Positions 127-25,592 of a stretch of 64,000 nucleotides of DNA are shown piece after piece. The stretch is taken from NCBI GenBank assembly GCA_000182565.2, contig KQ257463.1. One strand, given 5' to 3'. Position 1 is the first letter of the stretch. The number at the start of each line of letters is the position of its first letter. Position numbers and translations under genes: made by a program. The notes beneath the pieces were generated by a model that saw nothing but the letters and a program-made list of their open reading frames with translations, had not been told where the DNA came from and ran no database searches. This stretch comes from Spizellomyces punctatus DAOM BR117. Its lineage: Eukaryota.

Positions 127-255
127 CCCTAACCCTAACCCTAACCCTAACCCTAACCCTAACCCTAACCCTAACCCTAACCCTAACCCTAACCCTAACC
201 CTAACCCTAACCTAACCCTAACCCTAACCCTAACCCTAACCCTAACCCTAACCCT
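1..255 (+). repeat. Terminal telomere (CCCTAA)n, about 42 units, left chromosome end
   Basis: Near-perfect CCCTAA array at the window start, with variant units near 105-110 and 207-215. Confidence 0.97.
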
Positions 256-1641: not shown

Positions 1642-2132
1642 CTCCCACTCATTGAATCATCTGATTTCCGACAGAGACCCATTTTACCACAAAGTTTAAG
1701 GTGCTTTGTCTTGGGTAAAGCCTTGGTGAGAATGTCAGCCGTCATTTCTTCTGTCTGACAGTACTTGAGGCTGATTTTCTTGTCTTCTACTGCTTGTCTG
1801 ATGAAGTGGTGCCGCACATCAATGTGTTTGGTCCTTGCATGATGTGTTGGGTTGTTGGCAAGCGCTATGGCGCCCTGATTGTCACCATACAACGTTGTAG
1901 GACCACTTTGCTGATGTCCTAGCTCGCCTAGAAGTGTTCTGAACCAGATAACTTCCTTGGTAGCTTGACAAAGAGCCATGTACTCTGACTCTGTTGATGA
2001 TAGAGCAACTGTAGGTTGCCTCTTGCTTTGCCAGCTGACTGTGCTGCCGCCAATCTTGACTAAGAAGCCAGTGGTAGACTTCCTGAAGTCCAAATCACCG
2101 CCCCAATCTGCATCAGAGTATGCAGATAGCTC
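1623..2132 (-). pseudogene. Copia A RNase H fragment of a second copy, interrupted at 2132 by another copia A LTR
   Basis: SDADWGG, STTESEYMAL-like, DNQGA, RTKHIDVRHHF and ADILTK motifs; duplicates 2626-3135. Confidence 0.9.
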
Positions 2133-2644
2133 TATTGAAACTTAGCGCTTGGAACACTGATTTCCCGTGTGGAAATCACTTCTGAAAGGCCTAGTAATGC
2201 CTGTGGCCGCTAGTAAGACTTCTGGGTGCAGTAACTTGTGGGATAACACACTTGTATTAATCCAGAGACGTTCAAAAGTCCCCTTTATATAACCCAGTAC
2301 ATTCTCCAGCCTCCCTCCGCCTTTGTTTACTGTTTACATGCTTCAGCCCACTTGTTTACATGCTCAGCCGTGCTCAGCAGTGCTCAGCAGCTTCAGCCAT
2401 GCCTTGGCAAACATTACCTGAAGATCTAGATCATCACAAACCTTCCAGACCTTCTAAGAGTGCTTACATGATGATTTACCCCTTTAAATCATTCCACACG
2501 CGTCTGTGATCATTCTGATTACTCTAAGTCCAATTCCCCACGTTGCAACTTAGCCAAATCAGATGTGAACTGTCTAATGACATCCCAGCATGATCTCACA
2601 TGATTTATAGATCATACAGCGTGGTTTAAGCCTGAATCTCAACG
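2133..2644 (-). repeat. Copia A 3' LTR
   Basis: 512-bp direct repeat. Confidence 0.92.
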
Positions 2645-3954
2645 CTCCCACTCATTGAATCATCTGATTTCCGACAGAGACCCATTTTACCACAAAGTTT
2701 AAGGTGCTTTGTCTTGGGTAGAGCCTTGGTGAGAATGTCAGCTGTCATTTCTTCTGTCTGACAGTACTTGAGGCTGATTTTCTTGTCTTCTACTGCTTGT
2801 CTGATGAAGTGGTGCTGCACATCAATATGTTTGGTCCTTGCATGATGTGTTGGGTTGTTGGCAAGTGCTATGGCGCCCTGATTGTCACCATACAATGTTG
2901 TAGGACCACTTTGCTGATGTCCTAGCTCGCCTAGAAGTGTTCTGAACCAGATAACTTCCTTGGTAGCTTGACAAAGAGCCATGTACTCTGACTCTGTTGA
3001 TGATAGAGTGACTGTGGGTTGCCTCTTGCTTTGCCAGCTGACTGTGCTGCTGCCAATCTTGACTAAGAAGCCAGTGGTAGACTTCCTGAAGTCCAAATCA
3101 CCGCCCCAATCTGCATCAGAGTATGCAGATAGCTCCCACTTGCTCTGAATGCCACCCAGTTGAAGTCCTAGGTCTCTGGAGCCATTCAGGTACCGCATGA
3201 TCCATTTGACTGCTATCCAGTGCTGATGTCCGGGGTTTCCTTTGGCTACCAGTCTGGCCTTGTAGCGCTCTACAGAGCCATCTGACTTGAGTTTCAGCTT
3301 GAAAACCCACTTGCAGCCCACTGTGGATCTTCCTGGTGGTAGTTTGACTAAGTCCCATGTCTGATTCTCCATCAGAGAGTCATATTCTGCTTTGACAGCT
3401 GCCTCCCACTGTTTGGCATCATGTCTGGTCCTAGCTTCAGGCAGAATGCTGGGTTCTTCCTGTGGAACTTCCCCAATGGTGAAGGCAAAAGCCAGATTTG
3501 ACTGAGTTGGCTTTGCAATCCACCACTCTCCCGGTGGTTTGTGAAATCTGGCACTCTTCCTGCTGAGTTCTGGCACTTCCTCAGCATCCTGGAAGTCGTC
3601 CCCATCATCTTCTGATGCTGAAGAGTTGTCTGGAGTGATGCTAGATGGTCTCTGAGTCTCTTGAACCGTCCCTAGCCCTTCTTGGTCGTCCAAGAACGAA
3701 GGCTCCCCTCCCAGAGGCATCTGTAGCTCTTGGTCTTGCTGTGGTACACTCTGCAGTCGCTGCTGAGTGCTCCACATCAAGTTTTCATCAAAGATGACGT
3801 CCCTTGACATGATAACTTGGTTCATTTCAGGTACCCACAGTCTGTAGGCCTTACTCTGAGTGCTGTAGCTGACCATGACTGCCTTCTTGGCCTTCTCATC
3901 AAGTTTTGACCGCTTTTCTTTTGGAATATGAGTGTAGGCCACGCAGCCAAACAC
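2626..3954 (-). pseudogene. pol: Copia A pol 3' part: integrase tail, RT N-terminus, RT core deleted, RNase H
   Basis: FGCVAY, CKWVFKLK and YKARLVAKG fused directly to NPGHQHWIAVKWIMRYL; no YVDD motif. Confidence 0.88.
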
Positions 3955-5867
3955 TCTGAGGTGCTGGAGATCTGGTTTACTGCCTGTAAACTCTTGAATG
4001 GTGTTGATTGTTTGCTGAGTGCTGCAGTGGGGCTCCTGTTCCTGAGATAGACCACTGTCATGATTGCCTCGCCCCAGAACTTGTAGCTGAGTTCACTGTG
4101 GTGCAGCATGCACCTTCCCATTTCCACCAGCATCCTGTTCATCCTCTCAGCAACACCATTCTGCTCTGGTGTGTAGGGGGTGCTGAATTGCTGCTGAATT
4201 CCCTTCTGTTTGCAGAATTTCTTGAATTCTTCGCCCATATACTCTCCCCCATTGTCTGATCTGAGAGTTTTGATCTTCTGTCCTGTGAAGTTGGTTGCCC
4301 AGGCCTCAAACTCCTTGAATTTGCTGAGAACCTCACTCTTCTCCTTCAGAAGATAAACTGCCGTCATCCTTGACTTGTCATCAATGAATGTGACAAAGTA
4401 CTTTGCCCCACCATGACTTGGTGTCTTCATGGGCCCACACACATCACTGTGAACCACCCCCAGCAGTAGAGCCGCTCTAGCTGCTTCTCCCTTTGGAAAG
4501 GGACGCCTGGTGATCTTTCCAATGGCACAGGCTTCGCATGGTGATGTTTCTGTGTGACTCTTGACCTCCAGACCGCTTCCCAGCTGGTTCCTAGCCAAGA
4601 TTTTGATGCTGTTGACGTTCAGGTGTCCTAACCTGCGATGCCAGAGGTCCAAACTCATTCCAGAGGCTATGTTTGCATGTTCTCTTGCATGAAACATGTA
4701 TAGACCGCCCCCTAGAGTTCCCTGGATTGCTTCCTGACCGTCTGAAGTCTTGATACAGCATCCCTTGCTGCCAAACTCAACTTTGGCACCGTTTTCAGTG
4801 GCTCTTCTTACTGAAAACAAGTTCTTTTCAAGCTTGGGAACAAACCACACGTCTCTGAGGGTACAGAATCGGTTTCTGCCTGTCTCAAGTGTGATCTGGC
4901 CCTTCCCTATTGCCTGAACTGTTCTGTTGTCCGCCAGATGGACTTGAATTGGTGACATCTCCATGTAATTGGTCATCCAATCCTTCCTGTGTGACATGTG
5001 CTGTGAAGCACCCGAGTCCACAATCCACCAGACTGCTCCCTGAGAGGTTTTGGTGTCATCTCCTGACTGAGCAAAGAATAGGAACTCATTCTGAGTTGCC
5101 TGACTGGTGCTGGCTTGATTGGCTTGTTGTTTGGTGTCCGCCAGAAACTTCCTGCAGTCCTTCTTGAAGTGACCCTTCTTGTTGCAATAGAAGCACTTCC
5201 CTGCTATCTTCTTGGTCCCACCATGCTTGCCAACCTTCTGCCCACCATCCCTGCTGAAAAAGGCCTTCCCTTTGCTATCTCCTTCACTCCCAGCTTCCTT
5301 CCTGCGTGTTTCTTCATGCAAAAGCCGTGAGGTGAGGAATTCCAGCATCAGAGAATCACTCCTGGCCTCCAAAGACACCACCAGCTGTTCATAACTCTCT
5401 GGTAGGCTGTAGAGTAGGGTGATGACTTGGTCTTCTTCACTGACTGGCGCCCCAATGGCCTCCAACTGCTGAGCCATTGTCCTGACCGTGTTTATGTGTC
5501 CCAACATGCCCCCAGTGCCATCTTCCATCTTCAGAGTGAGAAATTTCCTCCTTAGATAGAGCCTACTGGCAATTCCTTTCCTTTGGTGGACGTCACTGAG
5601 CTTTAACCAGGCCTCTTTTGCAGTTACAGCGGTCTGTACATGCATGAGTTGGGCATCACTCAGTGACAGAGCAATTACTGCCATTGCCCGCTCATCCCTT
5701 CTCCTCCAATCCTTGTCAGAGGTTCCCTCCATGCTCTCATCTCCTTCAATCACACCCCACAGCCCCTTTTCCTTCAGCAACATCGTCATTTTGAACTTCC
5801 AGAGGTGGTAGTTCACACCATTGAACTTTTCCATTGTGAGTTTGGTGTCCAAGTCCGTGTTTGACAT
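3822..5867 (-). CDS. gag-pol: Copia A Gag (UBN2-type)-protease-integrase, frameshifted near 3990
   Basis: NYHLWKFKM, CFYCNKKGHFKKDC, WIVDSGASQHM, WHRRLGH, VHSDVCGP, RSDNGGEY, PEQNGVAER. Confidence 0.92.
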   Translation of the reverse strand: MSNTDLDTKLTMEKFNGVNYHLWKFKMTMLLKEKGLWGVIEGDESMEGTSDKDWRRRDERAMAVIALSLSDAQLMHVQTAVTAKEAWLKLSDVHQRKGIASRLYLRRKFLTLKMEDGTGGMLGHINTVRTMAQQLEAIGAPVSEEDQVITLLYSLPESYEQLVVSLEARSDSLMLEFLTSRLLHEETRRKEAGSEGDSKGKAFFSRDGGQKVGKHGGTKKIAGKCFYCNKKGHFKKDCRKFLADTKQQANQASTSQATQNEFLFFAQSGDDTKTSQGAVWWIVDSGASQHMSHRKDWMTNYMEMSPIQVHLADNRTVQAIGKGQITLETGRNRFCTLRDVWFVPKLEKNLFSVRRATENGAKVEFGSKGCCIKTSDGQEAIQGTLGGGLYMFHAREHANIASGMSLDLWHRRLGHLNVNSIKILARNQLGSGLEVKSHTETSPCEACAIGKITRRPFPKGEAARAALLLGVVHSDVCGPMKTPSHGGAKYFVTFIDDKSRMTAVYLLKEKSEVLSKFKEFEAWATNFTGQKIKTLRSDNGGEYMGEEFKKFCKQKGIQQQFSTPYTPEQNGVAERMNRMLVEMGRCMLHHSELSYKFWGEAIMTVVYLRNRSPTAALSKQSTPFKSLQAVNQISSTSECLAAWPTLIFQKKSGQNLMRRPRRQSWSATALRVRPTDCGYLK

Positions 5868-6034
5868 GTCTGAGCTGATTTGGTGAGTGGATTTGTTGTT
5901 GGGGAAGAGGTAAAATCGTCCTAGTATGGTAGGTGGTCCAAATATGAGGTTGGGAAGGAGATAGGTCCGTCAGGAAGATGGTGTGGCCGTCAGAAAAGAG
6001 ATTTGAAGCAGGAAAATATCAGTGATAGCTATCA

Positions 6035-6046
6035 GGGCTCATAACC
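6035..6046 (-). promoter_or_regulatory. Primer-binding site GGTTATGAGCCC (half-tRNAiMet type)
   Basis: Abuts the 5' LTR; complementary to the tRNAiMet anticodon-arm sequence GGGCUCAUAACC, as in Drosophila copia and Ty5. Confidence 0.85.
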
Positions 6047-6558
6047 TATTGAAACTTAGCGCTTGGAACACTGATTTCCCGTGTGGAAATCACTTCTGAA
6101 AGGCCTAGTAATGCCTGTGGCCGCTAGTAAGACTTCTGGGTGCAGTAACTTGTGGGATAACACACTTGTATTAATCCAGAGACGTTCAAAAGTCCCCTTT
6201 ATATAACCCAGTACATTCTCCAGCCTCCCTCCGCCTTTGTTTACTGTTTACATGCTTCAGCCCACTTGTTTACATGCTCAGCCGTGCTCAGCAGTGCTCA
6301 GCAGCTTCAGCCATGCCTTGGCAAACATTACCTGAAGATCTAGATCATCACAAACCTTCCAGACCTTCTAAGAGTGCTTACATGATGATTTACCCCTTTA
6401 AATCATTCCACACGCGTCTGTGATCATTCTGATTACTCTAAGTCCAATTCCCCACGTTGTAACTTAGCCAGAGCAGATGTGAACTGTCTAATGACATTTC
6501 AGCATGATCTCACATGATTTATAGATCATACAGCGTGGTTTAAGCCTGAATCTCAACA
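6047..6558 (-). repeat. Copia A 5' LTR
   Basis: 512-bp direct repeat, TGTTG...CAATA. Confidence 0.92.
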
Positions 6559-8248
6559 CCATGATGCCCTCAGAGTTTGGAGGCCCTACCTGGAAGGAAC
6601 ACCCTTCAAAGTTATCTCAGACCACCAGTCCCTCAAGTGGCTACAGAACCAGCCCTTCTTGACCAGAAGACAAGCCAGATGGGTCATGAACTTCCAATCT
6701 TTTGACTTTGAGATTGGTTATGGCCCAGGAAGACTCCACACAGTGGCAGACATCCTGTCTAGAAGACCAGACCTGGCCCCAAAATGCATCAAGTGCAAAG
6801 CCTTGGTGACAGCAGAGTTAAATGCCATAACTCACAGCACCAACACCCTTGAAGAGAGGTTAAAGACCAGCACCACTTTGGACCCAGAACTTCAAGAGCT
6901 TATTGAAGCATTGGATGACCCCAATGACTTACAAGCTCAAGAGCAAAGGCTGAAGCATCTTAGGCACCAAGATGGCTTACTATACTATCAAAATAGGATC
7001 TTTGTCCCAAGTGATCCAGACCTAAGGTTAAGCCTACTCCAAGAAACCCATGACACTCAGTATGCTGGACACTTTGGCATCACCAAGACCTATGATGCCC
7101 TAGCCAGGTATTACTACTGGCCAAGAATGTACAAGGACATCAAGAAGTATGTCAAGTCTTGTGATTCCTGCCAGAGAAGCAAACCTAGTCAGCAACCACC
7201 GGCAGGCCTGCTGCAGCCCCTTCCAGTACCCAAGACCAGATGGATCCAGATCTCCATTGACCTGATCCCTGACCTACCCATAACTTCCTCTGGTCACAAT
7301 TCCATCTTTGTCATTGTGGACAGATTGTCAAAGAGAGGCCACTTTATCCCCACCACCACCAGAGCCTCAGCCAAGGACCTGGCCCTGCTCTTCTTGAAGC
7401 ATATCTTCAAGCACCATGGCCTGCCAGAAGTAATTGTATCTGATAGAGACACCAAGTTCACCAGTTCATTCTGGTCCAACTTGATGCAACTCTTAGGCTG
7501 CAACACCCTCCTAGCCACTGCAAGGCACCAGCAGACCAATGGACAGGCAGAGAGAACCATCAAGACTTTGAAGATCTACCTGAGAGCTTTCCTGGAGTAC
7601 AATATGAAGAATTGGGAAGATCTTCTACCCTTTGCTGAGTTTGCCTACAACAACAGCATCTCAGAAACTACAGGCTTCACCCCATTCTACTTGGAGAATG
7701 GCCAGCACCCCAGGACCCCAACAACACCACCAGGAGAAAGCAGTAATCCTGAAGCAACAGACTTCCACCAGTACATCCAGCAACTGCTTCAAGTAGCCAA
7801 GGACAACATGATACTGGCCCAAGAAAGACAAGTTCAGCAAGCCAACAAGTCTCTCAGCAATGCCCCAAGCTACCCCATAGGCTCCAAAGTTTGGCTATCC
7901 AGAGAAGGCATCACCCCAGAAGAAGAAGCCCAGAGACCAGCCCAGAAACTTCTTCACCCCTGGCTTGGACCCTACAGAATCAAGGCCAAGGATGAATTTC
8001 AGAATTACACCCTTGAGCTCCCCAGCACCATGAAGATCCACCCAGTGTTCCATGTGAGACTCCTCAAGCCTTACCTGGACCCCACAGAGGACTTCCCTAC
8101 CAGACCAGTACCACCTGAACCTGAGCCCATCATCCAGCAAGGAGAAGAGTTTTGGGAAGTTGAGAAGATACTGGACCATAAGACCAGAAGAAAGAAGAAC
8201 CTCTACCTCATCAAGTGGAAAGGCTACCCCTCCTCTCAGAACACTTAG
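6559..8248 (+). pseudogene. pol: Gypsy A RNase H-integrase-chromodomain, stopped by the telomeric insert
   Basis: [46 protein letters not shown]...YLIKWKGY. Confidence 0.9.
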
Positions 8249-8295
8249 GGTTAGGGTTAGGGTTAGGGTTAGGGTTAGGGTTAGGGTTAGGGTTA
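8245..8295 (+). repeat. Interstitial telomeric tract (TTAGGG)8 TTA
   Basis: Perfect repeats read directly from the sequence. Confidence 0.95.
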
Positions 8296-8333
8296 CCTAG
8301 CCCAGAAGGGAGCTTAATCTTAAAGTGGGGGAG

Positions 8334-8763
8334 TGTAACAGAATTCTTCTGTTAGTTACTTTGTCTTTAGTTAGTCAGTCAGTAGTATCAGTAGTGTAGT
8401 AGTTTGGACTTAGAGATTTTCAGTGCAAGTCCATTAGTCTTAAAATGGCAGGCACATGTCTCTGAAACAAATGTTAGTAAGGAGGCAGGCCTAAAGGTTG
8501 ATTTACCTAAATTAGGCAAGTCAGAGACATGTGTCTGAAACAAATTCCCCTTACTGAGCTGCAGAAAATAATTTTTGCTGCAAAGATAAGGAGGATACAT
8601 TGTGACTCAGTAGTTTAGAAGTCTTTTCATTGGTTAGAGATAAAACTGAAGCCTTGGCATTTTTGTCTATAAAAAGGGAGTGTTCCCACACCCCCCTCTA
8701 ATAGAATAACCAAGTTTTCCCCAAGTCTTCCTAGTCTTCTTGTCCCTGCTGCCAATTGTTACA
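8334..8763 (+). repeat. Gypsy A 3' LTR (430 bp variant)
   Basis: TG...CA ends after the PPT; termini match the LTR at 32579-33069. Confidence 0.85.
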
Positions 8764-9749: not shown

Positions 9750-11412
9750 TAATGCTCCATTTTCCAAATCTTGTAAGCATCTGTCTGTCGAATGTGGTGG
9801 AGAGGTTCCCAAGTGTTCTTGCTATGTGGGTATCCTTTCCATTTGATGAGGAATTGTGGTTTACCGAGTCATCGGCATTGGTCAATAATCTCCTTGACTT
9901 CATATTTGGGAATCCCTGCGATATGAACAGGAGGTGGTGGTACTACTACATTCCTATAGCGGTGAGATGCTGGGTCTTCATATTTCTTTAGGACACTAAC
10001 ATGGAAGATAGGATATAAGGCAGATAGGCGAGTATCCTGTAACTTGAGCTCGTAGGTGTTTGGATAAGGTCCTATTGCTTTGATTGTGTAGGGACCGATC
10101 CAGCTAGCAGCTAGCTGTGCTGGTTTTTGTAGACTAATGTCTACCTCAATCCCTTTGTGATTGAGTAGGACCTGGTCTCCTATGGTGAAGGTAATAGCTG
10201 TGCATCCTTTGTTATAGTGTCCAGCATATTCATCCTGTAGTTCCTTCATGCAGTGTTGAATGATTATGGCTATTTCATCCATCACTTTTTTGATGTCCTT
10301 AATCTCATTTTGGTCGATAGGTTTCATCATTTGGAGTTCTGTGGAAGTAATGACTCCATCTGCTTGTAAGGGCATTCACCTGATATCTGCCTTGAATGGT
10401 GTCAGTCCATGTTGATTTGGGGTGTTGTTCAATGCGAACTCAAGGAGAGGAAGATACTGTGGCCAATTATCTGCCGCATAGTTGAGGTACAGCTGATATA
10501 TAGACTTTACTGTCCATATCATCCGTTCACATTTGCCATCAGTTTGTTGGTGTCAGGCACTAGCAAATTGGTGTTTCATACCAAGGACTTTACAGAAGGC
10601 CTCAAAGAAATCAGAAAGGGCTTTCGGGTCATGGTCTGTAATAAAGATCCTGGATGCTCCTACATTCTTGTAGACTTGGGACAAATATGTCTGTGCAAGA
10701 TCCCAAGCATTGGAAGCTTGGAGTGTTGGTACGAGGATGGTCTGGTTAGTCAAGTAATCAATGAAACAAAGAATGGCATTGGGTCAGAATCCATGGGTGC
10801 TATTGCCTGGAGGCATATAAGTCATATCAAACCCGATCATATGCCATCGACTATTAGGGATAGGTAATGGTCACAAAAACCCGTGCTTTTGTAAAGGGTT
10901 CTTGTATTGTTGGCATTCAGGACAAGTCCAAATGTATGCATAGATGTCATGTTCGAGGTGAGGCCAATAGAATCTTCATAGAATTTTAGCTAATGTGCAT
11001 CATTGACCTTCATGCGAGCCATCTATTAGGCTGTTGTGATATTGCTGTAAGATTCTAGTATGCTGCATTTCTGGTACATATAGCGAGTCCTTCTCATAAG
11101 TTAGGAGGTCATTTTGTATTGCATAGCATCATAGCCTTGATCCTAAGGCATGGGCTGGTGTTGTCTTCAACGTTTTGATTATTGTAAGGGCATAATTGTC
11201 TTGGCTCAGTGCCTGAATCGATTCTTCGCAATTAAATGGCATTAGCATGGTCTCGGTGCTGGCAACTAATATGGCTTGCAACTGGATTCATTGTTGACAC
11301 TCTGCACATCGGGGTGCATAGTGTGGGTTCCACGAAGGAATGTCTGCAACATGGTTAACTTGTCCGGGCATGTATTCGATCGTCATGTCGAATTGTTGTA
11401 ATGTTTCAACCC
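9750..11412 (-). pseudogene. pol: Gypsy B integrase-chromodomain (outer copy)
   Basis: WIGPY, YPIFHVSVLKKY, YEVKEIID...FLIKWKGY...TWEP; many in-frame TGA stops. Confidence 0.85.
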
Positions 11413-11767
11413 TGTTAGCAATCACAGGTAGCAGACCTCTAAGCCACTGAACTGCTATGCCATGCAGGCATGTCTTCACTGCGCCATGCGCCACATGCGC
11501 CATGCATGTCGTTAGATTTCTCTTGCATCGCTAGTAGTATATTAAAGAATGACTTCTTAACATACAATAGACTTCTTAACATCTATACAAGAGTAGAGTT
11601 CACTCTGTTCCTACTCTCTATCACTAATACATTCCCTATAGGAATATACCCTCACTAGCTAACAGGTTATGAGCCCTGGAAGTAGAGTACCACTTCAAAG
11701 AACACCGCCTCTCACATGCAGCAAAATGCTGGCATGATGAGGCAGCGCTCAAGGAACTTCTACATGC

Positions 11768-14700
11768 ATGCAAGGCATACCATATTTGGACGAACCCTCC
11801 GAGCAGGACCTCCTAAATCAGTCTGTATATCATGACACACTCCCGGAGGACCCTGAAAACACAGACCCAGATGTTGGGTACAGCAGATACCTATTGGACC
11901 CTGTACGGGACCCTGGGGCGCACGTGCCCAAACAGGAAATGGACCAAATAAAGATGGAAATATGGCCAAGCACTCTGGCTGAGGGCACCAGTGAGAGAAG
12001 AATGGAATACTCTGCAGAATATCCTCCAAGTGGGACATATGCTGTGCGCCCGGAGGACATGGACTCGAGCAATTGAATAGATAGGCTTGAAGCACTTGTT
12101 GGACAGCTCATTCTCACTGTAAAAAGAGAAAACAGCAAAGAAGCTGTGAGGACTGAACCAACAGTGCAAACCCATTATGGAAAAGCACAGTATGCGGACG
12201 AGCAAAGGGCAAGACTGCATACACCTAGTGGGGGCATACCACACAGTGGGCCGCCAAACCCTCTCCTACAACCACCCAGCACTTACCACATAGCGATGTC
12301 AGTGAGGTCAAATTCACCCACAAGCTCAGTTTACATGTCAACATCAAGTACGGCAGACAAGCGCGGATGCAGAGCATTTGTGGATGGGATGCTAAAGGAT
12401 ATCGGGCAATATAATGGGGAACCAAATACTATGAAGCTCAATACATTTCTGGGCAGAGTAGACATGGTAATAAAGCACCAGATGGTTCCACCTGACATGG
12501 TTGTAGACTTTGTGAGCACCAAATTCATGGGATTAGCTCAACAATGGTGGACATCACTGTCACCAACAAGACAGGCAAGCTTTACTGCTTGGTATGATCA
12601 AGAGGATGGACACGGACGAACAATAACTGGGTTACGGTCTGCCTTGTATGTGCGCTTCATGCCACGAACACATATGCATGATACATTGAGATGGTTGAAA
12701 CAATTAAAGCCCAAGACAAACCAGTCCCAGAGCATGGATGAGTTTGTGGCATATTTCAACTCTCAGATATACTCACTACCATCTATGCCTGATTTTATTA
12801 AACAGGACTACTTCATTTCTGCCCTACCGGCAGAAGTAGCAGCACTGCTGCAATCCAATGAGGAAAACCTTACCTCTCTGGAAACCCTACAAGAAGCGGC
12901 AACCCGAATCTATCCAGTGATTCACAAGCATGCGAAACCCCAGGGAGGCAGTATGCACGCCGCCCCTGCACAGGTCACGCAAATGGACAATGCATCTGGA
13001 CAATCCACGACTTCCAAAAAGGGAAAGAAAGGAAAACAAAAGAAGCAAAATGAGGGCCACATCGAGAAGCAACCGAATTCAAACCAACACTCAAATCAAA
13101 ACTCGAATCAAAGTACACCTTGACCATGCAGATACTGCAATGCATCACATCCAAGGACTGTATGTCCCTTGATCCTCAAGCTGGTCCAGAAACAATCCAA
13201 CTGCTTGAGTGCAAGCCTAACAGAGGCTTGCCATGTGGAAATGGTACACGATGATGTGCCGTACAGTGCTCTTATCAATTCCGGCGCGACTGACCATATG
13301 ACACCCAATAGGGGTCATTTGGATCCCTCCACCATATATCAGGATGTGAGGAATGTCAGCTTAGCTGACAACACCATTTTAAAATCAACTGTACAAGGCA
13401 ATGTTATCATCAAAGCAGATGGATATTCGACTCCACTCGAATTGCGTGATGTCCTCCATGTTGATGGGCTGCAGAAAAACCTAATCTCCATCCCCAAATG
13501 TAATGAAAATGGTGTGGATGTAACCTTCCACAGTAGTGGAGAAGTTTCTCTCATGAAAAACAGGTGACAAATTGCAAGCGGCATATGATGGAACAATGCA
13601 TATTACCTGGAAGGAACCCTGAAACCCCAGGGCTTTCCAGATACAGAAGTCTGTGCAACAGAGGTATCACCTGCCCTTGCACATGCCAGACTCGGACACA
13701 TAGGACAACATGTCCTAGGAAAGATGGCATTGGCTATGCTCAGCTGGCCCATAGTGGGGGCTCACAGTCATAGGGACTGTGAGGCATGCATACTTGGAAA
13801 ATCATCCTGCACACCATTTCCACCAGCAAACAAAGAACCAAGAGAACTTTGTGAGCTAATTCACTCCAATCTACAAGGACCATTCTGAATTACAGGCCTG
13901 GATGGAGAATGCTACGCTCTCGTGTACATTGAGTACACCTCTAGGTATGGTGTCACTTACTGCATACCAAACAAGGAAGCAGAGACCATCCTCTCCAAAT
14001 TCAAGGAATTCAAGGCATGGCTCGAATGCACCACAGACAAGAAAATATGCACTGTTCATACAGACCGAGGAGGCGAATATCATGGCATATTCCACAAGTA
14101 CCTGATGGACTGTGGCATCCAGCATCAACAGACTACGGCATACTCCAGTCAACAGAACAGCATTGCTGAGCGCTGGAACCATACAAGCTTAGGGCGAGTA
14201 TGCGCCATCTTCGCAGACATGAAACTGCCATGGAAACTATGGGCCATCCTAATACAAATGGTGACCTACCTCCATGATCTCACTCCAAACTCTTTGAGTG
14301 ACAAAACCCCCCACGAGCTACTATTTCAATGCCGCCCCAACGTCACGCACCTCAGGCACATTGGCTGCATTGCGTATGCCCATGTCCCTGCTGCTGGCAG
14401 AGACAAGATGGCCAACAGAGCAAGGAAGACATACCTAGTGGGGTATGCCCAACAAAATGGCACCAAGGCCTACCTTGTTTGGGATCTGGTATGCAATGCT
14501 ATTGCGACCTCCAGGGACATCAAGTTTAACGAAGACGCCCCTCTTGAACTCAAATATCAGCAAGATCCTAGCACTATGGATCTGCTGGATGAGACCACTT
14601 CCGATGATGATCAGGAGTATCAAATTGACTACATCATGGACAAATGCCAGACTCGCGTGCACAAGCCTGAATACCTTGTGAAATGGACTGGTTATACAGA

Positions 14701-16390
14701 CCCTACCTGGGAACCCCGAGTCACTGTCGATGACACACAAGTGCTGGACACATGGGAAAACTGCATCCAAGCATATGCCATTGATGTGCATACAGGAAAA
14801 ATAAACCCTGAGTCCCTGACCTTTAAACAGGCAATGGCAACTCCAGATGCCAACGACTACCTGATAGCCTGCCAACAGGAAATTGAATCCCTGAAGGCAC
14901 ACGGCACGTACGTCACTGTACCGCATCCGCCCCATAAGCATGTGATCAGCACAAAGTGGGTTTGCCACAAAGTATTCAACCCTGATGGCACATTCAAGAA
15001 ATACAAAGCCAGAGCAGTATGCCAAGGCTTCACCCAAAGGCCAGGAATCGACTTTGATGATATGTATTCCCCAACCTTACCACTTCCAATCCTCCGCCTC
15101 TTCCTCATGTACATGGTCCAACATGGATTGGACATACACTCAATGGATTCCGTCACTGCTTTTCTCAACAGTGAAATGGACAAGGAAGTCTTCATTGAGC
15201 AATTTGAAGGCTTTGAACTACCTAACAAGCCAAGGAAAAGCTGGGTACTGATGCTGAAAAAGGCGCTCTATGGCCTGAAGCAGTCACCCCTCCTCTGGTA
15301 CCAAAACCTCAGAACTGCCCTGGAAGAACTCGGCTACTGCGTGGTGGAAATAAGCCCCTGCATGTTCTACAAGTACGCCGCGCCAGGGCACACCAACTCC
15401 GATGTTCAGCCATCCCTGTTGACGCTCGTAATCATAATGATCTTCGTGGATGATCTACTGATCCTAACCAAGGATCCTGAACAAATGAATGAGTCAAAGA
15501 AGGAGCTTCATAGTAAGTTTTCCTTTATGGACCAAGGTCACATAACCAACCATCTAGGACTGGCATATGAGTATGACATCTCCGCAGACATAAGGACCCT
15601 CAAGTTCTCCAACCCGATGTATATTGACAACCTGCTTGACCATTTCAAATTAATGAACTGCCATGCAATTGCCACACCATATGCCATGTCCGTGCGCAGT
15701 CAACAGATGCAAGAATCAGCACCTTTCCCTAACCCCAAGATATACCAAGAAGCAGTGGGGGCCCTTACTTGGGCTTCTATCTCATGGCAATGGGACATTG
15801 CCACTGCGGTCGGATATGTTGCGCGCAACGTCAGCACACCTACCCAATGTGATTGGGAGGCAGTCAAGCATATCTTCAAATATCTGAAAGGAACAAGGGA
15901 CTTTGCCATTACCTACACATCCCTGGAGAAAGATCCCTGCGGTCTCAGGGTGTATACAGATGCGGACTATGCAGGCGACCTCTCGGATTGCAAATCTATG
16001 TCCGGCTTGCTAGCTACCTGGAATGGCTACCCCATCCATTGGAAAAGTAGCAAGCAAACCTGTGTTGCCCATAGCACCACAGAAGCAGAGTACATCACAG
16101 CAAGTGTGGGATTCAGAGAGATCCTCTGGATACACCAAATCCTCGCGGACATGTTTAAGCCCATTGCTGGCTTCCAGCTCGTGCCCACCCCTCTCCATAT
16201 TGACAATGAGAGTGCTGCCACTTTAGCCCAAACCAAGGCCATAAACCAATGCATGAAACATATTGATAGGCATTACCATGGTATATGCAGAGGTGTCACA
16301 GATAAACAAATCGTGATTCTGGACATGGATACAAAGGAGCAGATGGCTGATTACTTCACCAAGCCATTAACCCAGGAGGATCATAATTGA
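11768..16390 (+). pseudogene. gag-pol: Copia C Gag-PR-IN-chromodomain-RT-RNase H polyprotein, apparently one frame interrupted by stops
   Basis: ORFs 11768, 12146, 13169 and 13922 share one frame; CRYCNASH...C knuckle, INSGATDHM, HTDRGGEY, YLVKWTGY...TWEP, YKARAVCQG, LYGLKQS, FVDD, YTDADYAG, ADYFTK. Confidence 0.9.
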
Positions 16391-16524
16391 CTGAGACTGT
16401 GAATCATGGATGGCCTGGATAATATTCAAATGCATGCATGACCCGCGTATGTGGAGGCAAACTCAGTGGAAGCTGAAATGCACGGGGATTGTGAAACACG
16501 ACAACTGAATATGATTGATATAAA

Positions 16525-17553
16525 TTATACAGAAATACCAGCACCACCCAAACCACCAAATCCACCTGCGCCGCCCACACCACCAAATCCACCAAAAGGG
16601 CCAAACAGATCATCCCAACTGTCCAAATCCTCGCTGTCCTTCCCCTCACTCTCCCCCTCTTCCTCCTCCTCTTCCTCACCCTCCCTCACCATCTCTGCAA
16701 ACTCCTCCCCCTCATCAGTCACCACCTCCTCCAAGAGCTTGGTGAGCTTCGCAATCTCGTCGCGCACCACGCCCGCAGCCTTTTTCTTCACATGCCGGGC
16801 TTTCTCCTTCTGGAACTCAGTAGGAGGGAAGGCTGGGGCCCTTCCACTCCTCCAAGCCCTATTCAGAGAAAGGTCTTGGAGACCACGGTACTTCCCCAGA
16901 GCTTCCAGATGCATGGGACTGTGTACGGGCAAGGATCGCGTAACCTCCTGTTCAGTCTTTGCCAAAGACAACTGCCTCTGCAACACCTCTTCCCTATCCT
17001 TCCGGTGTTGCAAGAAGGCACAGCGGCGCGCTGCCTCTATGAACTCATCCTTGAGTGCGCTAAGCTTGCATGCAGGCTCTGGGACTTTTCCCACTGCTTT
17101 TGCCACTTTTCTCTTGGCTGTTAACACCACAGCCTCAAAAACCCCTCTCCTGGGTCTCTCCTCTTCCTTAGGAGTCTTGCCTTGTCTGCCCTCTGGTCGT
17201 GCACCCGCCTCTGCCCTCAGTGACACCACCCCACTCACCGCTCCCTCTACCAAAGGAGCCGGCCCCTGCCACCACTTCTTGCCAAATCCAGGAAACAAAG
17301 GGCCACCAGGGGATGCCGCACTACTCTCCGCCGAGAGCTCGCGCAGCTGTTGGGAAAGGCCCTTTCCCCAAGACTTCTCGCTGGGAAGCTCGAACTTCCC
17401 CTTTTCCTTGCCCTTCTTAGATGAAGGGACCAGCAGGACATCAGGCGTGGTCTCCTGCTCCGCAGACCACTCGCGGATTAGCTCGGCCAATGTCTTTGCA
17501 TGGGGTGGCTCTCCCTTGGCCTTGCCTTTGCCTTTATCTTCCTTTGGTGCCAT
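16525..17553 (-). CDS. Extra antisense ORF of copia C, 342 aa, unknown function
   Basis: Open ATG-to-stop frame between pol and the 3' LTR; basic N-terminus, coiled-coil-like middle, acidic and Gly/Phe-rich tail. Confidence 0.7.
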   Translation of the reverse strand: MAPKEDKGKGKAKGEPPHAKTLAELIREWSAEQETTPDVLLVPSSKKGKEKGKFELPSEKSWGKGLSQQLRELSAESSAASPGGPLFPGFGKKWWQGPAPLVEGAVSGVVSLRAEAGARPEGRQGKTPKEEERPRRGVFEAVVLTAKRKVAKAVGKVPEPACKLSALKDEFIEAARRCAFLQHRKDREEVLQRQLSLAKTEQEVTRSLPVHSPMHLEALGKYRGLQDLSLNRAWRSGRAPAFPPTEFQKEKARHVKKKAAGVVRDEIAKLTKLLEEVVTDEGEEFAEMVREGEEEEEEEGESEGKDSEDLDSWDDLFGPFGGFGGVGGAGGFGGLGGAGISV

Positions 17554-19764
17554 AATACAAAAAAAAAAAAAGAGCTGGAAACACCGTTAGCAGCTAGCCA
17601 AATGAGCTCTGCAAGTCTGCAATGATGTCACGGCAGGTCTTACAGTTGATAGAAGTATGTGTGAAAGTGTAGAAAGTCGGTGGGCAATGGGTTCTTGTCT
17701 TGTAAAGAAAATAGCGGTTCAGACTTTTGACAGGTCTGAGTGGGGGTGTTAGCGATCACAGGTAGCAGACCTCTAAGCCACTTAACCGCTACGCCACGCA
17801 GGCGCATCTTCACTGCGCCACGCGCCACATGTGCCACACACGTCATTAGATTTCTCTTGCATCACTAGTAGTATATTAAAGAATGACTTCTTAACATACA
17901 ATAGACTTCTTAACATCTATACAAGAGTAGAGTTCACTCTGTTCCTACTCTCTATCACTAATACATTCCCTATAGGAATATACCCTCACTAGCTAACAAA
18001 CCCATCCTGCTTGTCATCAGGAAAGGTGTGGCTGCGTTTGAAGGTAGATCAGACTTTTATGGCCAGTGAAGGCACAGAAGAAGATACCAATCAGATATGG
18101 GTGGTTATGTTTCAAGAACTTGACTAGGGCTAAAAGTTCCTGTTTGTGAACTGGATACCACATCTCGGCGGGTTTCATCTTATGGGAGTAAAATGAGACT
18201 GGTCATAGACAGGGTAGTGCTTTAAGTTCTTGGATGGTTTTCGGCAGCAGAGATGGTATCTCATCTTCTGGGTCTGTAGTCTGGGCTAGCCATCCGCTGA
18301 TCGCAAATCCTGATGAATCAGTGAAGATGAAAGTGTCTTTGGTTGGGTCAAAGGTCACCAGGATGGGTGCAGTTGTAACGTCAATCGACCAGATTGCTCT
18401 AGTCGATGTTTTCTGGTGAATCATTGGGCCCTGTGAGAGGGCTGTATAAAGACTTTGTTGTTAATACAAGAGAAAGGGAACTATTGATAGTTCCTCACAT
18501 TGCTAACTAGGCTAGTTGTTCTTCTAGTTTTTCCTTGCTTGCTGCCCCCCTTTCTGAGGGGCTTTGGAGCAGCACTCTTTTATGCTTGCTCCCTCCTTCA
18601 GTGGGGCATCGGCATGAGATTTCCCACCTCTGCCAGTGTGGTCCCTCTTGTGCCAATTGGAAGTGATTGGCACTAGCAAATAAAGAGACAAATAATCTTC
18701 TAACTACGGGGCCACCATGGAACCGAATGACTTTGACAGGTCATCGGCGTGGCGGGGCTTACATAATCTAACTACTGTTACATGCTGCACCATACTTTGG
18801 CCATACATGGCTACATGATCACTATAGCTATATATGGTGATATGAGAGACGTGTCACGAAAATCTAAGTCCGCACGTTAAGTGTGAATACTAAAGGACAG
18901 GTCTACCTTACAATTGTTTGGGGGCTGACCCCTGGAGCAGCTTCACCCGGTGCTCACGGGGACCATTTGCTGAGTCATCACTCCATTTCTGGCCCTTTTA
19001 TACTTTATACAATTTGGGGGCTGACCCCTGGAGCAGCTTCACCCGGTGCCCACGGGCACCATTTGCTGAGTCGTCACTCCTTCTGGTCATGTATATACTT
19101 TATACAAAAATGTGCTTATTGCTATCTTAGTGCTAGACAAGCCTTTTTACTCTTGTTGCATCATCTACATACTAAAGCCCTACTGAATATACACGCGTAC
19201 TTGGAAGCCTCTTTTTACTTACAAAGAACCAGTTGCTTTGTTCTTTTAAATGGGAGCGTATTTCGCTTTCCCCTCTATCATTCTTACTACCCACTGTTGA
19301 TAACATCTTTCTTCAAAGAATGTCTTTTCTCCACATGGACATCACAATGTGGCTTGGTCCACACTTGAGACTGACTGCACGCATAAGCTCTGCATGATTT
19401 ACGCAGGCACCTTGCTTATCACGTCATGGGAATGGTTATGGAGGTGGTGACCCAGTGGGTCATTGCCTCCATGGTCCCATGCATAGCATTTTGCATGCTC
19501 GGGTAAGTCATTGTTCATTGTCGATTTCTTTTGTCTTTCATGTTGTTAATCGGAGTGGACTGGATTTAGATTTTTGACCAGTCAGGGGCTTGAGAGTATT
19601 TTCAAGCCCAGTCGTTCTCAACAAACCCCTGAAAAACATATTGTTTTTGTTCCATTTTGGGCTGTTGGGACCTTGCGCTTGGGGTTTGTGGTTGGTGTGG
19701 GTCTGTTGGGTATGCTTGTATACTTGTAATAGATGTCATCTTCGTAAATATATGTTTCACATTC

Positions 19765-22700
19765 TTAATGCTCCATTTTCCAAATCTTGTAAGCATCTGT
19801 CTGTCGAATGTGGTGGAGAGGTTCCCAAGTGTTCTTGCTATGCAGGTATCCTTTCCATTTGATGAGGAATTGTGGTTTACCGAGTCGTCGGCATTGGTCA
19901 ATAATCTCCTCAACTTCATATTCGGGAATCCCTGTGATATGAACAGGAGGTGGTGGTACTACTATGTTCCTATAGCGGTGAGATGCCAGGTCTTTGTATT
20001 TCTTTAGGACACTAATGTGGAAGATAGGATATAAGGCGGATAAGCGAGTATCCTGTAACTTGAGCTCGTAGGTGTCCGGATAAGGTCCTATTGCTTTGAT
20101 TGTGTAGGGACTGATCCAGCTAGCAGCTAGCTTTGCTGGTTTTTGTAGACTAATGTCTACCTCAATCCCTTTGTGATTGAGTAGGACCCAGTCTCCTATG
20201 GCAAAGGTAATAGCTGTGCATCCTTTGTCATAGTGTTCAGCATATTTATCCTGTAGTTCCTTCATGCGGTGTTGAATGATTACGGCTATTTTGTCCATTG
20301 CTTTTTTGATGTCCTTGATCTCATTTCGGTTGATAGGTTTCATCGTTTGGAGTTCTGTGGAAGTAATGACTCCATCCGCTTGTAAGGGCATTCACCCAAT
20401 ATCTGCCTCAAATGGTGTTAGTCCATGTTGATTCGGGGTGTTGTTCAATGTGAATTCGAGGAGAGGAAGATACTGTGGCCAATTGTCTGCCACATAGTTG
20501 AGGTACGGCCGATATATGGACTTTACTGTCCATATCATCCATTCGCATTTGCCATCAGTTTGTTGGTGTCGGGCACTAGCGAATTGGTGTTTCATACCAA
20601 GGACTTTACAGAAGGCCTCAAAGAAATTGGAAAGGGCTTTTGGGTCATGGTCAGTAATAAAGATCCTGGATGCTCCTACATTCTTGTAGACTTGGGACAA
20701 ATATGTCTGCACAAGATTGCGAGCATTGGAAGCTTGGAGTGTTGGTATGAGGATGGTCCGGTTAGTCAAGTAATCGACGAAACAAAGAATGGCGTTGGGT
20801 CGGAATCCATGGGTGCTATTGCCCGGAGGCATATAAGTCATATCGAACCTGATCGTATGCCATCGACTATTAGGGCTTGGTAATGGTCGCAAAAACCCAT
20901 GCTTCCATAAAGGGTTCTTGTATTGTTGGCTTTCAGGACAAGTCCGAATATATGCGTAGATGTCACGTTCAAGGTGAGGCCAGTAGAATCTTCGTAGAAT
21001 TTTAGCTAATGTGCATCGTTGACCTTCATGCGAGCCATCTATTAGGCTATCATGATATTGCTGTAAGATTCTAGTACACTGCTTTTCTGGTATGTATAGC
21101 TGGTCCTTCTCGTAAGTTAGGAGGTCATTTTGTATTGCGTAGCATTGTAGCCTTGATCCTAAGGCATGGGCTGGTGTTGTCTTCAATGTCTCGATTATTG
21201 TGAGGGTGTAATTGTCTTGGTTCAGTGCCTGAATCCATTCTTCGCAACTAAATGGCATTAGCATGGTCTCAGTGCTGGCGACTAATATGGCTTGCAACTG
21301 GATTCATTGTTGACACTCTGCACATCAGGGTGCATAGTGTGGGTTCCACAAATGAATGTCTGCAACATGGTTAACTTGTCCGGGCATGTATTCGATTGTC
21401 ATGTCGAATTGTTGTAATGTTTCAACCCATCCTGCTTGTTTTTGGGAAAGATGCGGCTGCATCTGGAGGTAGATCAGACTCTTATGGTCAGTGAAGGCAC
21501 GGAAGAAGATACCAATCAGATATGGGTGGTTATGTTTCAAGAACTTGACTAGGGCTAAAAGTTCCTGTTCATGAACTGGATACCATGTCTCGGCGGGTTT
21601 CATCTTATGGGAGTAAAATGAGACTGGTCATAGATGGGGTAGCGCTTTAAGTTCTCCGATGGTCTTCGGCAGCAGAGATGGTATCTCATCTTCCAGGTCT
21701 GTGGTCTGGGCTAGCCATCCACTGATCACAAATCCTGATGAATCAGTGAAGATGAAAGTGTCTTTGGTTGGGTCAAAGGTCATCAGGATGGGTGCAGTGG
21801 TAATAGCATTTTTGATCTTTTCGAATGCCGCTTTTTCTTCTTCTTTCCATTGCCATGTTTTCTTTCCAGATTGTAGTTGCGAGAGGGGCATCACGATTTC
21901 TGCATATCGGTCGATGAAGTCAATGAAGTAATTAGTTAATCCTAAGAATCATTGGACATCATGATGGTTTCACAACTCTGGCCAGTCTTGAACAGCTAGG
22001 ATCTTGCTGGGAGCAATCTGTATTCCGTTTCGTCCGATAATATGTCTGCAGAACTCGACCTCAGGTTGTCCCCACATGCACTTGGCTGGGTTCACATAGA
22101 GTTTGTGTTCAGTTAAGACTCGAAGCACAATATCTACATGCTTCTGGTGTTCCTCCATTGTCCTGGAGAATACCAGGATGTTGTCAAGGTAGGCGAGGAC
22201 TAGGTCATCATAATGTGGGCCAAGGATCTTGTTGATGAGGCGCTGAAATGCAGCTGGAGCGTTAGTTAATCCAAAAGGCATTACCAGATACTCAAAGTGT
22301 CCGAATCATGTATGAATGGCAGTCTTTTGCACATCGTGTGGGTTTATTCTGATGCGATGGTAAGTGTCTTTGATGTCAATACTCGTGAAGCACTTTGCAC
22401 CGGCTACCCAATCTCGCATCTCCTGTAGATTTGGTAGCGGGGTCCGGTCCTTTTTGGTTATGGCATTTAGTCCTCGATAGTCTAAACATACTCATAATCC
22501 CCCATCCTTCTTCTTGGCAAACACTATCTGGGCTCCCCAGGGGCTAGTGGAGTGTCGTATTTGTCCTTTCGCTAGGAGGTTGTTGAGCTGTTGGCGAAGC
22601 TCCTCTAACTCATTGGTACTCATATGTTGTAAGGGGTATGTGAGTGGTTTAGCTCCAGGAAGGAGTTCAATGCTAAAATTGTCTTCCCCTCGGTCTGGGG

Positions 22701-23598
22701 GGAACTCGCCATTCTCGGTAAAAAGCGTGTTGTTGTATTTATTGAGTGTAACCTTAAGGAATCCTGTGCATCCATTATCGGCTGTGTCAAACTCTCCTTT
22801 TCTTTTCTTGCCTTTTGTGTAGAGCCTTGCTGCATGGAAACTCATGTAGCGATCATCGACTTCCTCTGGTTGGATCCTCCATGCTGTCAGGTATCTGTTA
22901 TGTTTGATATCTTTGTCGAATTGCTTGGAGGAGCATTCATCCCATGTCGTCTTGGGTTGAATAAACTGTGAGGGGGGTTTGCCGAATCCTCTCAGATGGG
23001 CGGCATGATATGAGGCAGTGGCTTCCCATGCTCTGCTGGTCCATTGCGCCTCGATGTTGTGGCTCATGTTGTTAAAGTTAAACCGAAGGGTCGGTCATTG
23101 TGTTGTCCAATCGATGGAGACCTGCTTAAGGAGTTTTAATAGAGGTAACCCTATCACTGCATCAATGCCAATATTTGCTACAATGAAAGGGATCTTTCCA
23201 AGGTTTATGAATCCTCGAGGTTGCAAATTGGACAAGACTAGTGAAGAGGTTATCATCAAGTTCGATAGGCTCTGAGATCCTTCTTCGCCCCATTTTATCC
23301 AAATGGGTTGCTCTGGAGCATACTGTTCAAAATGATGTCAGTTTGCAAACTTCTTGTTGATGAGGTAGCTTGTACATCCAGTGTCAAATAATATTCTAGC
23401 AAACTTATCGCCGATACATCCATGGATAATGAAGGGCTCCTCAATCTCAGGATTTTTGATCTTGGTGTCATCATGATGTAACAGTTCTTCCTTTTGGTCC
23501 TGATCTGGTAGTCGTGGTACAATGACCTCATGCATGTGTACCATAGCCGCTGAAGGGATCAGGGCAGTCAGCGGCTTTGCTAAAAATCCTCCATTCAT
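19765..23598 (-). pseudogene. pol: Gypsy B pol (PR-RT-RH-IN-chromodomain), many stops
   Basis: LFDTGC, MPFGLTNAPA, YLDNIL, FTDSSG, TDHKSL, QTDGKCE, FLIKWKGY. Confidence 0.9.
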
Positions 23599-23834
23599 TC
23601 ATCCTCAAAGATTTCTTCAATCGAGGATGGTTCCTCTTGTTCTGCCCAGGTGGGCTCATCGGCCTCCATGGTTTGGTACTCAATTGGGGGGTTTTCAGTT
23701 GTCGTTGATTGAACCTGGGATTGGGACATTCTGACTCCACATCCCCTTCCTGGTCCTGTACCTCTGGTAGAGGGTTGTCCGGGTCCACGAGGAGTTCCTC
23801 AACCTCGTGGCAACTGCGTGGGGTACGGGGCAGC

Positions 23835-24917
23835 TCATACTGGAGCAGATGGACATTGATGAGCATAATGCCCTCTTCCTCCGCAGTTATTGCAGACAAT
23901 GCCAGAGCTTGCTCTCGTTACTGGCCAAGTGGCACCTCGGGTTACCATGGATGTCATGCGGCCGCGGAAGGATCCTCGTCCATGAGTGGACAGGTGACTT
24001 GGCATTGTTAAGGATGGTGCGGGTGCACTGATCCAATCGATGAGTCCCCGATCATTATATGCCATATGAAGGCTCTGCTGGAGGGGGACCAATACATCAT
24101 CTTCATCATTCATTAGTGACAGCATTGTTTTCATCGAGATGAGATGATTATATAATGCTTCTCCTACTCCGCAGTTTCGGCATACGCCCTCCATATAGTA
24201 CCGCAGAATGTTGGCATCCGGTATTCTAGGTCGGCCTGTAAATCGATGGCCTGAGATATCCTCTCCCACAAGGGCGTTAAAGGCCTGGGTGTACTCCGTG
24301 ACACTCTGGCCCATGGTTAAGTTCCGGAACCGCTGGTGGAGATTATTTCGAGAGTCACGGGGGATGAACCTGTGAACACAGGCGGTTTCCAGCTCCTCGA
24401 GAGTATTGGCATGATGGTTGAAGCTAGTCCGGTTGTGCCACCAATCTAAAGCTGGACCCATGAGATAGGTTTGGATATGTGCCTCCACATCCGATCTTCT
24501 TCCTTCATTAGCATGTGCAACATGAAGGTAGCTCCTATGGGCTCCTAGGAACTCTTCTAGTTGACGAGCATCTGGCATGCCATCATATGTATGCAACCGT
24601 GCCCTGAGTGTGCTGAGCGTTGCATTAATCATCATTTCTTGCTGGCGCTCAATGCGGCAGGCAGCTGCAGCATTGGCCGCAGCTTGTTGCATGATCACGT
24701 TCCCGAACGCTTGCTGTTGCACTAGGTTGGTGAGGGTTACCAGGAGCCTGTCTAGATGACCAGGACCTGGAGGGATTGGCAGCTGTGGTGGGGGTGGCAT
24801 CGGTGCCGGCCCTGGTTCTTGCGGCGGCTGGTTGTTCTGCGGTACAGCCTCGAATTGGAAGACTGGGTTCTCTCCCTCTTCCTTGACAGTGATGAACGGG
24901 TGATTGTCTTTGGACAT
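23835..24917 (-). pseudogene. gag: Gypsy B gag
   Basis: YLMGPALDWW, GQSVTEYTQAF, CNNCGGRGHYAHQC. Confidence 0.88.
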
Positions 24918-25592
24918 TTCAGATCATTCATGGGGCTCTGGGCTGAAGGTAGAAGCTTCTGAGTTTCTATCAGAGGCGAATGGGTCGAAGATGATAGAGG
25001 GTTAAATGTCTTCCGATTCTGTAGCATGTGTGGTAGTCTCAGGTGGTGCTACCATGTAACGTCAATTGACCAGATTGCTCTAGTTGACGTTTTCTGGCAA
25101 ATCATTGGGCCCTGTGAGAGGGCTGTATAAAGACTTTGTTGTTAATACAAGAGAAAGGGAACTATTGATAGTTCCTCGCATTGCTAACTAGGCTAGCTGT
25201 TCTTCTAGTTTTTCCTTGCTTGCTGCCCCCATTTCTGAGGGGCTTTGAAGCAGCGCTCTTTTATGCTTGCTCCCTCCTTCGGCGGGGCATTGGCATGAGA
25301 TTTCCCGCCTCCGCCAGTGCGGTCCCTCTTGTGCCAATCAGAAATGATTGGTGCTAGTGAATAAAGAGACAAATAATCTTCTAACTATGGGGCCACCGCG
25401 GAACCGAATGACTTTGACAGGTCATCGGTGCGGCAGGGCTTACATAATCTAACTACTGTTATGCGCTGTGCCATACTTTGGCCATACATGGCTACATGAT
25501 CACTATAGCTATATATGGTGATATGAGAGACACGTCGCGAAAATCTAAGTCCGCATGTAAGTGCGAATACTAAAGGACAGGTCTACCTTACA

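Follow-up and report, generated by a model that had tools for sequence, protein, structure and literature searches.

Chromodomains linked to integrase typify the chromoviruses, such as MAGGY, of the Ty3/gypsy superfamily of retrotransposons with long terminal repeats (LTRs). Ty5 targets silent chromatin via its integrase C-terminus through a short peptide that binds Sir4, with no folded histone reader. In Ty1/copia elements, chromodomains were described in diatom CoDi-A and, at that date, in no other copia (Llorens et al. 2009, PMC2774666, accessible part of the paper); this account of CoDi-A is repeated in the accessible parts of PMC5348765 and PMC11541908, and fungal chromodomains are tied to gypsy elements in that of PMC3248453. 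The subject of this report is a full-length copia element, bounded by paired LTRs and a 5-bp target duplication, at positions 11413-17998 of a 64,000-nucleotide stretch (hereafter the window) of Spizellomyces punctatus DAOM BR117 (contig KQ257463.1, assembly GCA_000182565.2). It is a decayed copia element with a type-I chromodomain after the integrase, and in active relatives this domain would likely (probability roughly 0.6) anchor the integrase on histone H3 that is methylated at K9 or perhaps at K27, and so direct new insertions preferentially to heterochromatin.

The element resembles CoDi-A and CoDi-I, as far as the accessible descriptions go, in its copia domain order and in having a chromodomain at the integrase C-terminus, but those elements have diatom hosts, whereas this one and its named relatives (Powellomyces hirtus) belong to chytrid fungi. 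CoDi2.4 was scored as having no CCHC array (PMC2774666 supplement, accessible part), whereas the lineage described here has a knuckle-like stretch. The Gag of the present element is gypsy-type by sequence, and CoDi was compared by description rather than by Gag or reverse transcriptase (RT) sequence. With chromoviruses (e.g., Tcn1), the element shares a gypsy-type Gag and a caged chromodomain of type I that follows an SH3-like module of the integrase; gypsy loci also contain chromodomains with a similarly short loop. Unlike chromoviruses, it has an RVT_2 RT, an integrase before the RT, and a copia-type protease and SH3 module; the gypsy RT and the integrase after RNase H that characterize chromoviruses are absent. 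Its chromodomain is also internal in the polyprotein and would require a cut to become C-terminal, so that the C-terminal location found in chromoviruses and CoDi is matched by polyprotein position, with a predicted processed end. Ty5, Osser, and Bryco have the same copia order and, by what we take to be a motif match, likely share half-tRNA-Met priming. This priming type is described in the accessible parts of PMC6317226 and bioRxiv 2025.04.25.647736.

In the literature that was searched, no chytrid chromodomain copia and no copia element with a gypsy-like Gag was found; Repbase, GyDB, subscription journals, and preprint supplements lay beyond the reach of the search and may contain such elements. 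A fungal copia chromodomain is absent from the accessible parts of PMC6317226, PMC12477816, PMC9998398, PMC11797018, and PMC6875170 and of bioRxiv 10.64898/2025.12.07.692804, 10.1101/2025.03.17.643675, and 2025.04.25.647736, and the words "chromodomain" and "chytrid" are absent from PMC5445492. An earlier note on this DNA, made from the sequence alone, had described chromodomains as rare in copia, and this is upheld; the chromodomain copias in the papers examined are from diatoms.

Identity of the chromodomain

Pfam Chromo (PF00385) matched amino acids 244 to 290 of the 833-codon open stretch 13889-16390 with 30.4 bits (E 3.7e-7; cut-off, 25.1 bits), and the short stretch alone scored 34.4 bits. 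The domain is flanked in frame by SH3_retrovirus (amino acids 147 to 217) and RVT_2 (amino acids 340 to 598). The earlier note had called a canonical chromodomain with an aromatic cage, embedded in a Ty1/copia polyprotein between integrase and RT, and both parts of that call are borne out; the peptide it singled out begins with E243 at 14615 and ends with LDTWE at 14758, and the cage residues are Y244 (codon 14618-20), W266 (14684-86), and Y269 (14693-95). Matches at E≤0.01 were obtained with 53 distinct PDB sequences, and all those listed are chromodomain proteins. A profile of the chromodomains of the lineage described below has CDY/CDYL, HP1, and Chp1 as its top PDB matches. The AlphaFold model is poor overall (mean predicted local distance difference test score [pLDDT], 48.7), and its chromodomain part alone is usable; this part (block pLDDT, 63-79) forms three strands and a C-terminal helix. 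In fold comparison it comes closest to chromodomains bound to H3K9me3, whose Z values of 7.9, 7.8, and 7.2 are in a tie with those of other structures; the first has a root mean square deviation (rmsd) of 2.8 over 58 aligned residues. With three cage aromatics and this strand/helix fold, the domain is a type-I (HP1-like) chromodomain.

Relatives and other copies

A full HMMER scan was made with the SH3-chromodomain-RT junction, and among the best 150 of 6374 matches, at least 17 other proteins have a chromodomain adjoining a copia SH3 or RT domain. Further relatives came from an alignment search (98 matches) and a metagenome scan (best 80 of 196 loci), giving at least 30 distinct copia-borne chromodomains once near-duplicates were removed at 80%; one of the 30, P0025, was assigned manually on the basis of how it aligns with the start of the RT. 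The full three-aromatic cage is present in 28 of the 30. In every listed protein the chromodomain starts 13 to 35 residues past the SH3 module, except in the three proteins of the P0075 cluster, where it lies 75 residues past it. P0162 is intact (1666 amino acids), is 54% identical across the query, and has the same build; this architecture recurs in intact relatives found in ENA, JGI, Logan, and NCBI, and two relatives are proteins of Powellomyces hirtus, a chytrid in the order to which S. punctatus belongs. A relative labelled "archaeon," on a 2.3-kb contig, is likely a binning contaminant. The chromodomain is a lineage trait in these copia elements. Word-index searches with residues 130 to 345 of the decayed copy returned nothing at E≤0.001, viral-contig scans returned no relative, and query P0014 retrieved generic copia clusters alone from the Atlas. 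P0009, a metagenome protein, has six chromodomains, and Pfam gave an ADP-ribosyltransferase-like match at its N terminus.

Two DNA runs, X17 and X18, are chromatin immunoprecipitation libraries without a stated antibody, and their depth gives a rough copy estimate, not a chromatin mark. In X17, 2056 of 3990 placed reads are at least 99% alike to the element, and depth is about 9-18 on gag and 19-31 from integrase through RNase H and does not fall at the chromodomain. Loose read ends at the LTR edges lead to other flanks, i.e., other insertion sites. Across 14560-14860, the X17 reads that are at least 99% alike number 80 of 169, the remainder representing a second version, and none of the 13 substitutions listed in 14603-14762 alters a cage codon. 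The earlier note had held that its claim would fall if other copies lacked the domain; it is kept both in other copies and in relatives. The family is small and decayed.

Gag

The trimmed capsid domain matches Ty3_capsid with 30.2 bits (cut-off, 29.1), and its model has a retroelement capsid fold (pLDDT 87.9). In the alignment search, Gag was annotated in nine of the copia proteins that bear a chromodomain; all nine have Retrotrans_gag, with or without Ty3_capsid, and none has PF14223; these rows are kin and therefore do not represent nine independent events. Among the chromodomain-free copia matches, 46 have PF14223 and one (P0218) has a gypsy-type Gag. Ten Gags of the lineage gave Retrotrans_gag in 10, Ty3_capsid in 8, and PF14223 in 1 (E 0.013), so that the copia-type Gag PF14223, which is typical of Ty1/copia but not defining, does not characterize the lineage. 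A profile built from ten lineage Gags matched dArc1, PEG10, dArc2, and Arc in the PDB, and no Ty1 or Copia capsid was among its 13 matches at E≤10. The same profile scored 122 and 119.5 bits on two gypsy Gags of the window and 54.4 bits on a linked gypsy Gag in L054, and it did not exceed 9.1 bits on any of 53 copia-type Gags. By sequence, then, Gag is of the Ty3/gypsy type, while the protease, integrase, and RT, as well as the order of the domains, are those of a copia element. Gag probably came from Ty3/gypsy by old recombination, and the chromodomain may have done so too, less securely; as the protease is copia-type, the hybrid junction would fall between Gag and protease.

P0218, which has a copia pol and a gypsy-type Gag without a chromodomain, is a weak sister of the element's group in the RT tree and may reflect chromodomain loss or a stage before its gain. 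P0075 combines a chromodomain with a weak copia-type Gag match and longer linkers, and falls apart from the others in trees, which probably reflects a separate chromodomain acquisition. Together with P0175 it makes up a small separate group of chromodomain copias.

Phylogeny

For the RT-RNase H and integrase trees, 43 to 45 rows were hand-picked from about 120, with short rows excluded. In both, the element falls within a chromodomain-copia group (99 in the Shimodaira-Hasegawa-like approximate likelihood ratio test [SH-aLRT], 7 of 43 rows; 94/85, 9 of 45 rows), and a second chromodomain-copia group with the same Gag type is placed elsewhere without strong support. The chromodomain copias form three groups in the RT and integrase trees, requiring three or four changes. 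Approximately unbiased (AU) tests did not reject one clade (p-AU, 0.53 for groups I and II and 0.35 for all three), and the tree joining I and II scores 2.2 log units above the free-search tree. The Gag tree unites members of these two groups with support of 90/91. The chromodomain phylogeny against gypsy that the earlier note had proposed was run on 117 rows and 54 columns and gave no resolved placement; 28 of 30 copia rows and 17 of 31 gypsy rows lie in one open half (support 92/94, unstarred), and 11 changes are needed for the copia rows. With the lineage profile, gypsy chromodomains reach 67.4, 66.4, 64.7, and 63.4 bits at best and the best cellular one in the PDB scores 52.3, the gypsy scores being inflated because a pattern derived from these copias served to collect the gypsy sequences.

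Targeting and origin

From what is known of copia polyprotein processing, the protease would cut shortly past the chromodomain helix, at small-residue motifs seen in relatives, so that the mature integrase would end in the chromodomain. By analogy with chromoviruses, on whose chromodomain the primary paper is reportedly that of Gao et al. 2008, the cage would bind methylated H3 and tether the integration complex, and insertion would be biased into heterochromatin in active relatives. Type-I cages bind methylated H3K9 (PMC6317226, accessible part), and transposable elements (TEs) of S. punctatus have high levels of both H3K9me3 and H3K27me3 (bioRxiv 10.1101/2025.03.17.643675, accessible part), so that either mark could be read. 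Also counted in favor of targeting is that the copy lies inside another TE and shows CpG decay (observed/expected ratio, 0.43). The nesting that the earlier note described stands, the host sequence being a gypsy pol, but its use as a sign of heterochromatin targeting does not, because a chromodomain-free element of the window, copia A, also lies among TEs.

Several observations weigh against this reading of the element. Location and decay do not single out the family, since copia A lies among TE pieces with a CpG ratio of 0.26. Centromeric and non-centromeric relatives in brown algae both have an intact chromodomain (bioRxiv 10.64898/2025.12.07.692804, accessible part), and an intact cage therefore need not decide targeting. 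The best single PDB sequence match is cpSRP43, which is no histone reader. Identity to P0162 is 22/47 in the chromodomain and 12/26 and 11/22 in the linkers, so the domain is no better conserved, a comparison blurred by CpG decay in the copy, and in one other copy a 5-base deletion hits the codon for the Trp of the cage (X17, 7 of 32 reads; X18, 2 of 3). For Gag, fold comparison does not discriminate between gypsy and copia capsids, with a tie between Drosophila Copia (Z 12.2; rmsd 8.7 over 152 aligned residues) and PEG10 (Z 12.1; rmsd 2.3 over 85 aligned residues), which is expected because the capsids are homologous; Foldseek placed dArc1 best (E 1.3e-4), with Copia at E 0.15. A functional chromodomain that does not choose heterochromatin, acting as a general chromatin tether or as a protein- or RNA-binding module, with nesting due to survival in gene-poor regions, would fit the position of copia A, the differing target preferences of brown-algal elements with intact chromodomains (same preprint, accessible part), the cpSRP43 match, and a two-residue deletion ahead of the TWE motif relative to CDYL. 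This explanation is nevertheless unlikely given the retention of the cage in 28 of 30 chromodomains, the CDY/CDYL, HP1, and Chp1 matches of the lineage profile, and a chromodomain position as in chromoviruses.

Whatever its function, the chromodomain might have been captured from a host gene (HP1/CDYL-like), possibly repeatedly, rather than from a gypsy chromovirus. Such an origin is doubtful, although it has in its favor a chromodomain tree without resolution, the 11 changes that its copia rows need, the three groups in the RT and integrase trees, and the weak copia-type Gag match of P0075; gypsy chromodomains reach 67.4 bits versus 52.3 for the best cellular PDB sequence (with the gypsy set inflated and no chytrid HP1 compared), and the AU tests leave the grouping of I and II, or of all three, unrejected. 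The window is rich in nested gypsy elements with chromodomains, which would suit a one-off local recombination or an assembly chimera by which an ordinary copia received the chromodomain and Gag of a gypsy element. That is hardly credible, because one continuous frame lies inside paired LTRs and a target duplication, a contig crosses the domain without differences (though it may be the source of this DNA), the gypsy chromodomain closest to that of the element is not one of the window's own, and intact relatives from four databases have the same architecture; P0162, P0014, and P0144 refute it. Tentatively, and with the odds somewhat against it, these elements can be seen as an old lineage of copia/gypsy hybrids in early-diverging fungi, independent of CoDi-A, with copia enzymes and priming and with a capsid and a heterochromatin-reading chromodomain that were both acquired from Ty3/gypsy chromoviruses.

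Structure and decay of the element

The features of the element are given in Table 1. The pol order is protease-integrase-RT-RNase H, as in Ty1/copia (Pseudoviridae), and the copia hallmarks are present (TG...CA LTRs, primer site, polypurine tract, and target duplication). Its RT aligns and groups among copia RT-RNase H rows, in trees without a non-copia outgroup, and for the RT the Pfam scan gave RVT_2, with no RVT_1 match. The primer motif GGTTATGAGCCC, putatively of the half-tRNA-iMet type known from Ty5/copia, likewise lies directly 3' of the 5' LTR of copia A, and no tRNA gene for comparison with it was found in the 64-kb window. The integrase core (rve) match is partial and below cut-off at 25.6 bits. 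Pfam gave no match at the zinc-knuckle-like stretch, and relatives P0014 and P0038 have weak zf-CCHC matches.

Table 1. Features of the chromodomain copia element, with positions in the window
Feature	Position	Strand	Remarks
Left target-site duplication	11408..11412	+	5 bp; same letters as 17999-18003
5' LTR	11413..11664	+	252 bp; ends TG...CA; 94% identity with 3' LTR
Primer-binding site	11665..11676	+	GGTTATGAGCCC; directly after 5' LTR
Single gag-pol frame, decayed	11669..16390	+	Read against intact relative P0162
Gag capsid, Ty3/gypsy-type by sequence	12380..12934	+	Ty3_capsid match, Gag profile, retroelement capsid fold
Zinc-knuckle-like C-x2-C-x3-H-x4-C	13127..13165	+	Seen in translation
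Copia-type protease	13271..13513	+	Pol_BBD, 56.9 bits
Integrase zinc finger and core	13601..14146	+	gag_pre-integrs, 35.5 bits
Copia-type integrase SH3 module	14327..14539	+	SH3_retrovirus, 73.2 bits
Type-I chromodomain, cage Y/W/Y	14618..14758	+	Pfam, PDB matches, cage codons, model
Short linker with likely protease cut site (predicted)	14759..14824	+	Small-residue motifs after helix in relatives
Copia-type RT	14906..15682	+	RVT_2, 168.4 bits
RNase H	15956..16378	+	Motifs in translation; 72/141 identical to P0162
Antisense open reading frame, 342 codons	16525..17553	-	Open frame between RNase H and 3' LTR
Polypurine tract	17738..17746	+	Purine run preceding 3' LTR
3' LTR	17747..17998	+	
Right target-site duplication	17999..18003	+	

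The gag-pol frame has seven internal stops, every one TGA, and the catalytic Asp of the protease and the first catalytic Asp of the integrase, both Asp in P0162, are changed to Asn. The copy is dead and unable to transpose by itself; this state and the gypsy-type Gag go beyond what the earlier note held. The LTRs differ at 15 positions, 14 of which are CpG-type transitions, and the CpG ratio of the element compares with 0.92-1.0 in the genic stretches of 45100-64000, a pattern suggesting a fairly young insertion that cytosine methylation has since degraded. The element lies within the pol of a gypsy copy, the flanks matching 18912-21428 and 21424-21803. An RNA run gave 63 reads over 7.5 kb, part of them low-complexity and too few for judging expression.

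The antisense open reading frame begins toward the 3' LTR and has basic, coiled, and acidic stretches. It gave no Pfam match and no usable Atlas match, and the Atlas contains it letter for letter. A tblastn search with the P0162 tail against the 3' region of the element yielded low-complexity matches plus a single match of 8 residues, located at the polypurine tract.

Neighboring elements

Copia A (1130-6558, minus strand) is an ordinary copia with a copia Gag among gypsy pieces; its 1003-bp 3' end is duplicated, it has no matching target duplication, and it is probably rearranged. A CpG-poor group of chromodomain gypsy elements comprises 33047-38216 (minus strand), 6559-8356 (plus strand), and 207-1129 (minus strand). 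CG counts in this group are 3 in 3354 bases (202 expected), 0 in 948, 1 in 1798, and 0 in 923, and long open frames are retained, which looks like evolved CpG avoidance rather than decay and may be an escape from methylation damage. In 21794-32578, a gypsy LTR-gag segment is repeated in tandem in 3.8-kb units, some of them near-identical, and 18-bp and 48-bp tandem arrays lie within a gypsy element at 36500-37150 and 38187-38474. A nearby CSN3 gene falls into one 90% cluster with a protein of Spizellomyces, so that a Spizellomycetales chytrid is the likely host.

Implications

The fungal lineage extends chromodomain copia elements beyond diatoms, the sole hosts named in the literature examined. 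It offers a natural test of a histone reader on a copia integrase that needs excision from the middle of a polyprotein, and the targeting question is testable because chromatin maps of S. punctatus are published. The gypsy-type Gag in this lineage bears on the modularity of LTR elements, implying that copia protease, RT, and RNA can operate with the capsid of the other superfamily. If the hybrid origin is true, the lineage would be a "copia chromovirus," and capsid and targeting modules would cross between the two main LTR superfamilies.

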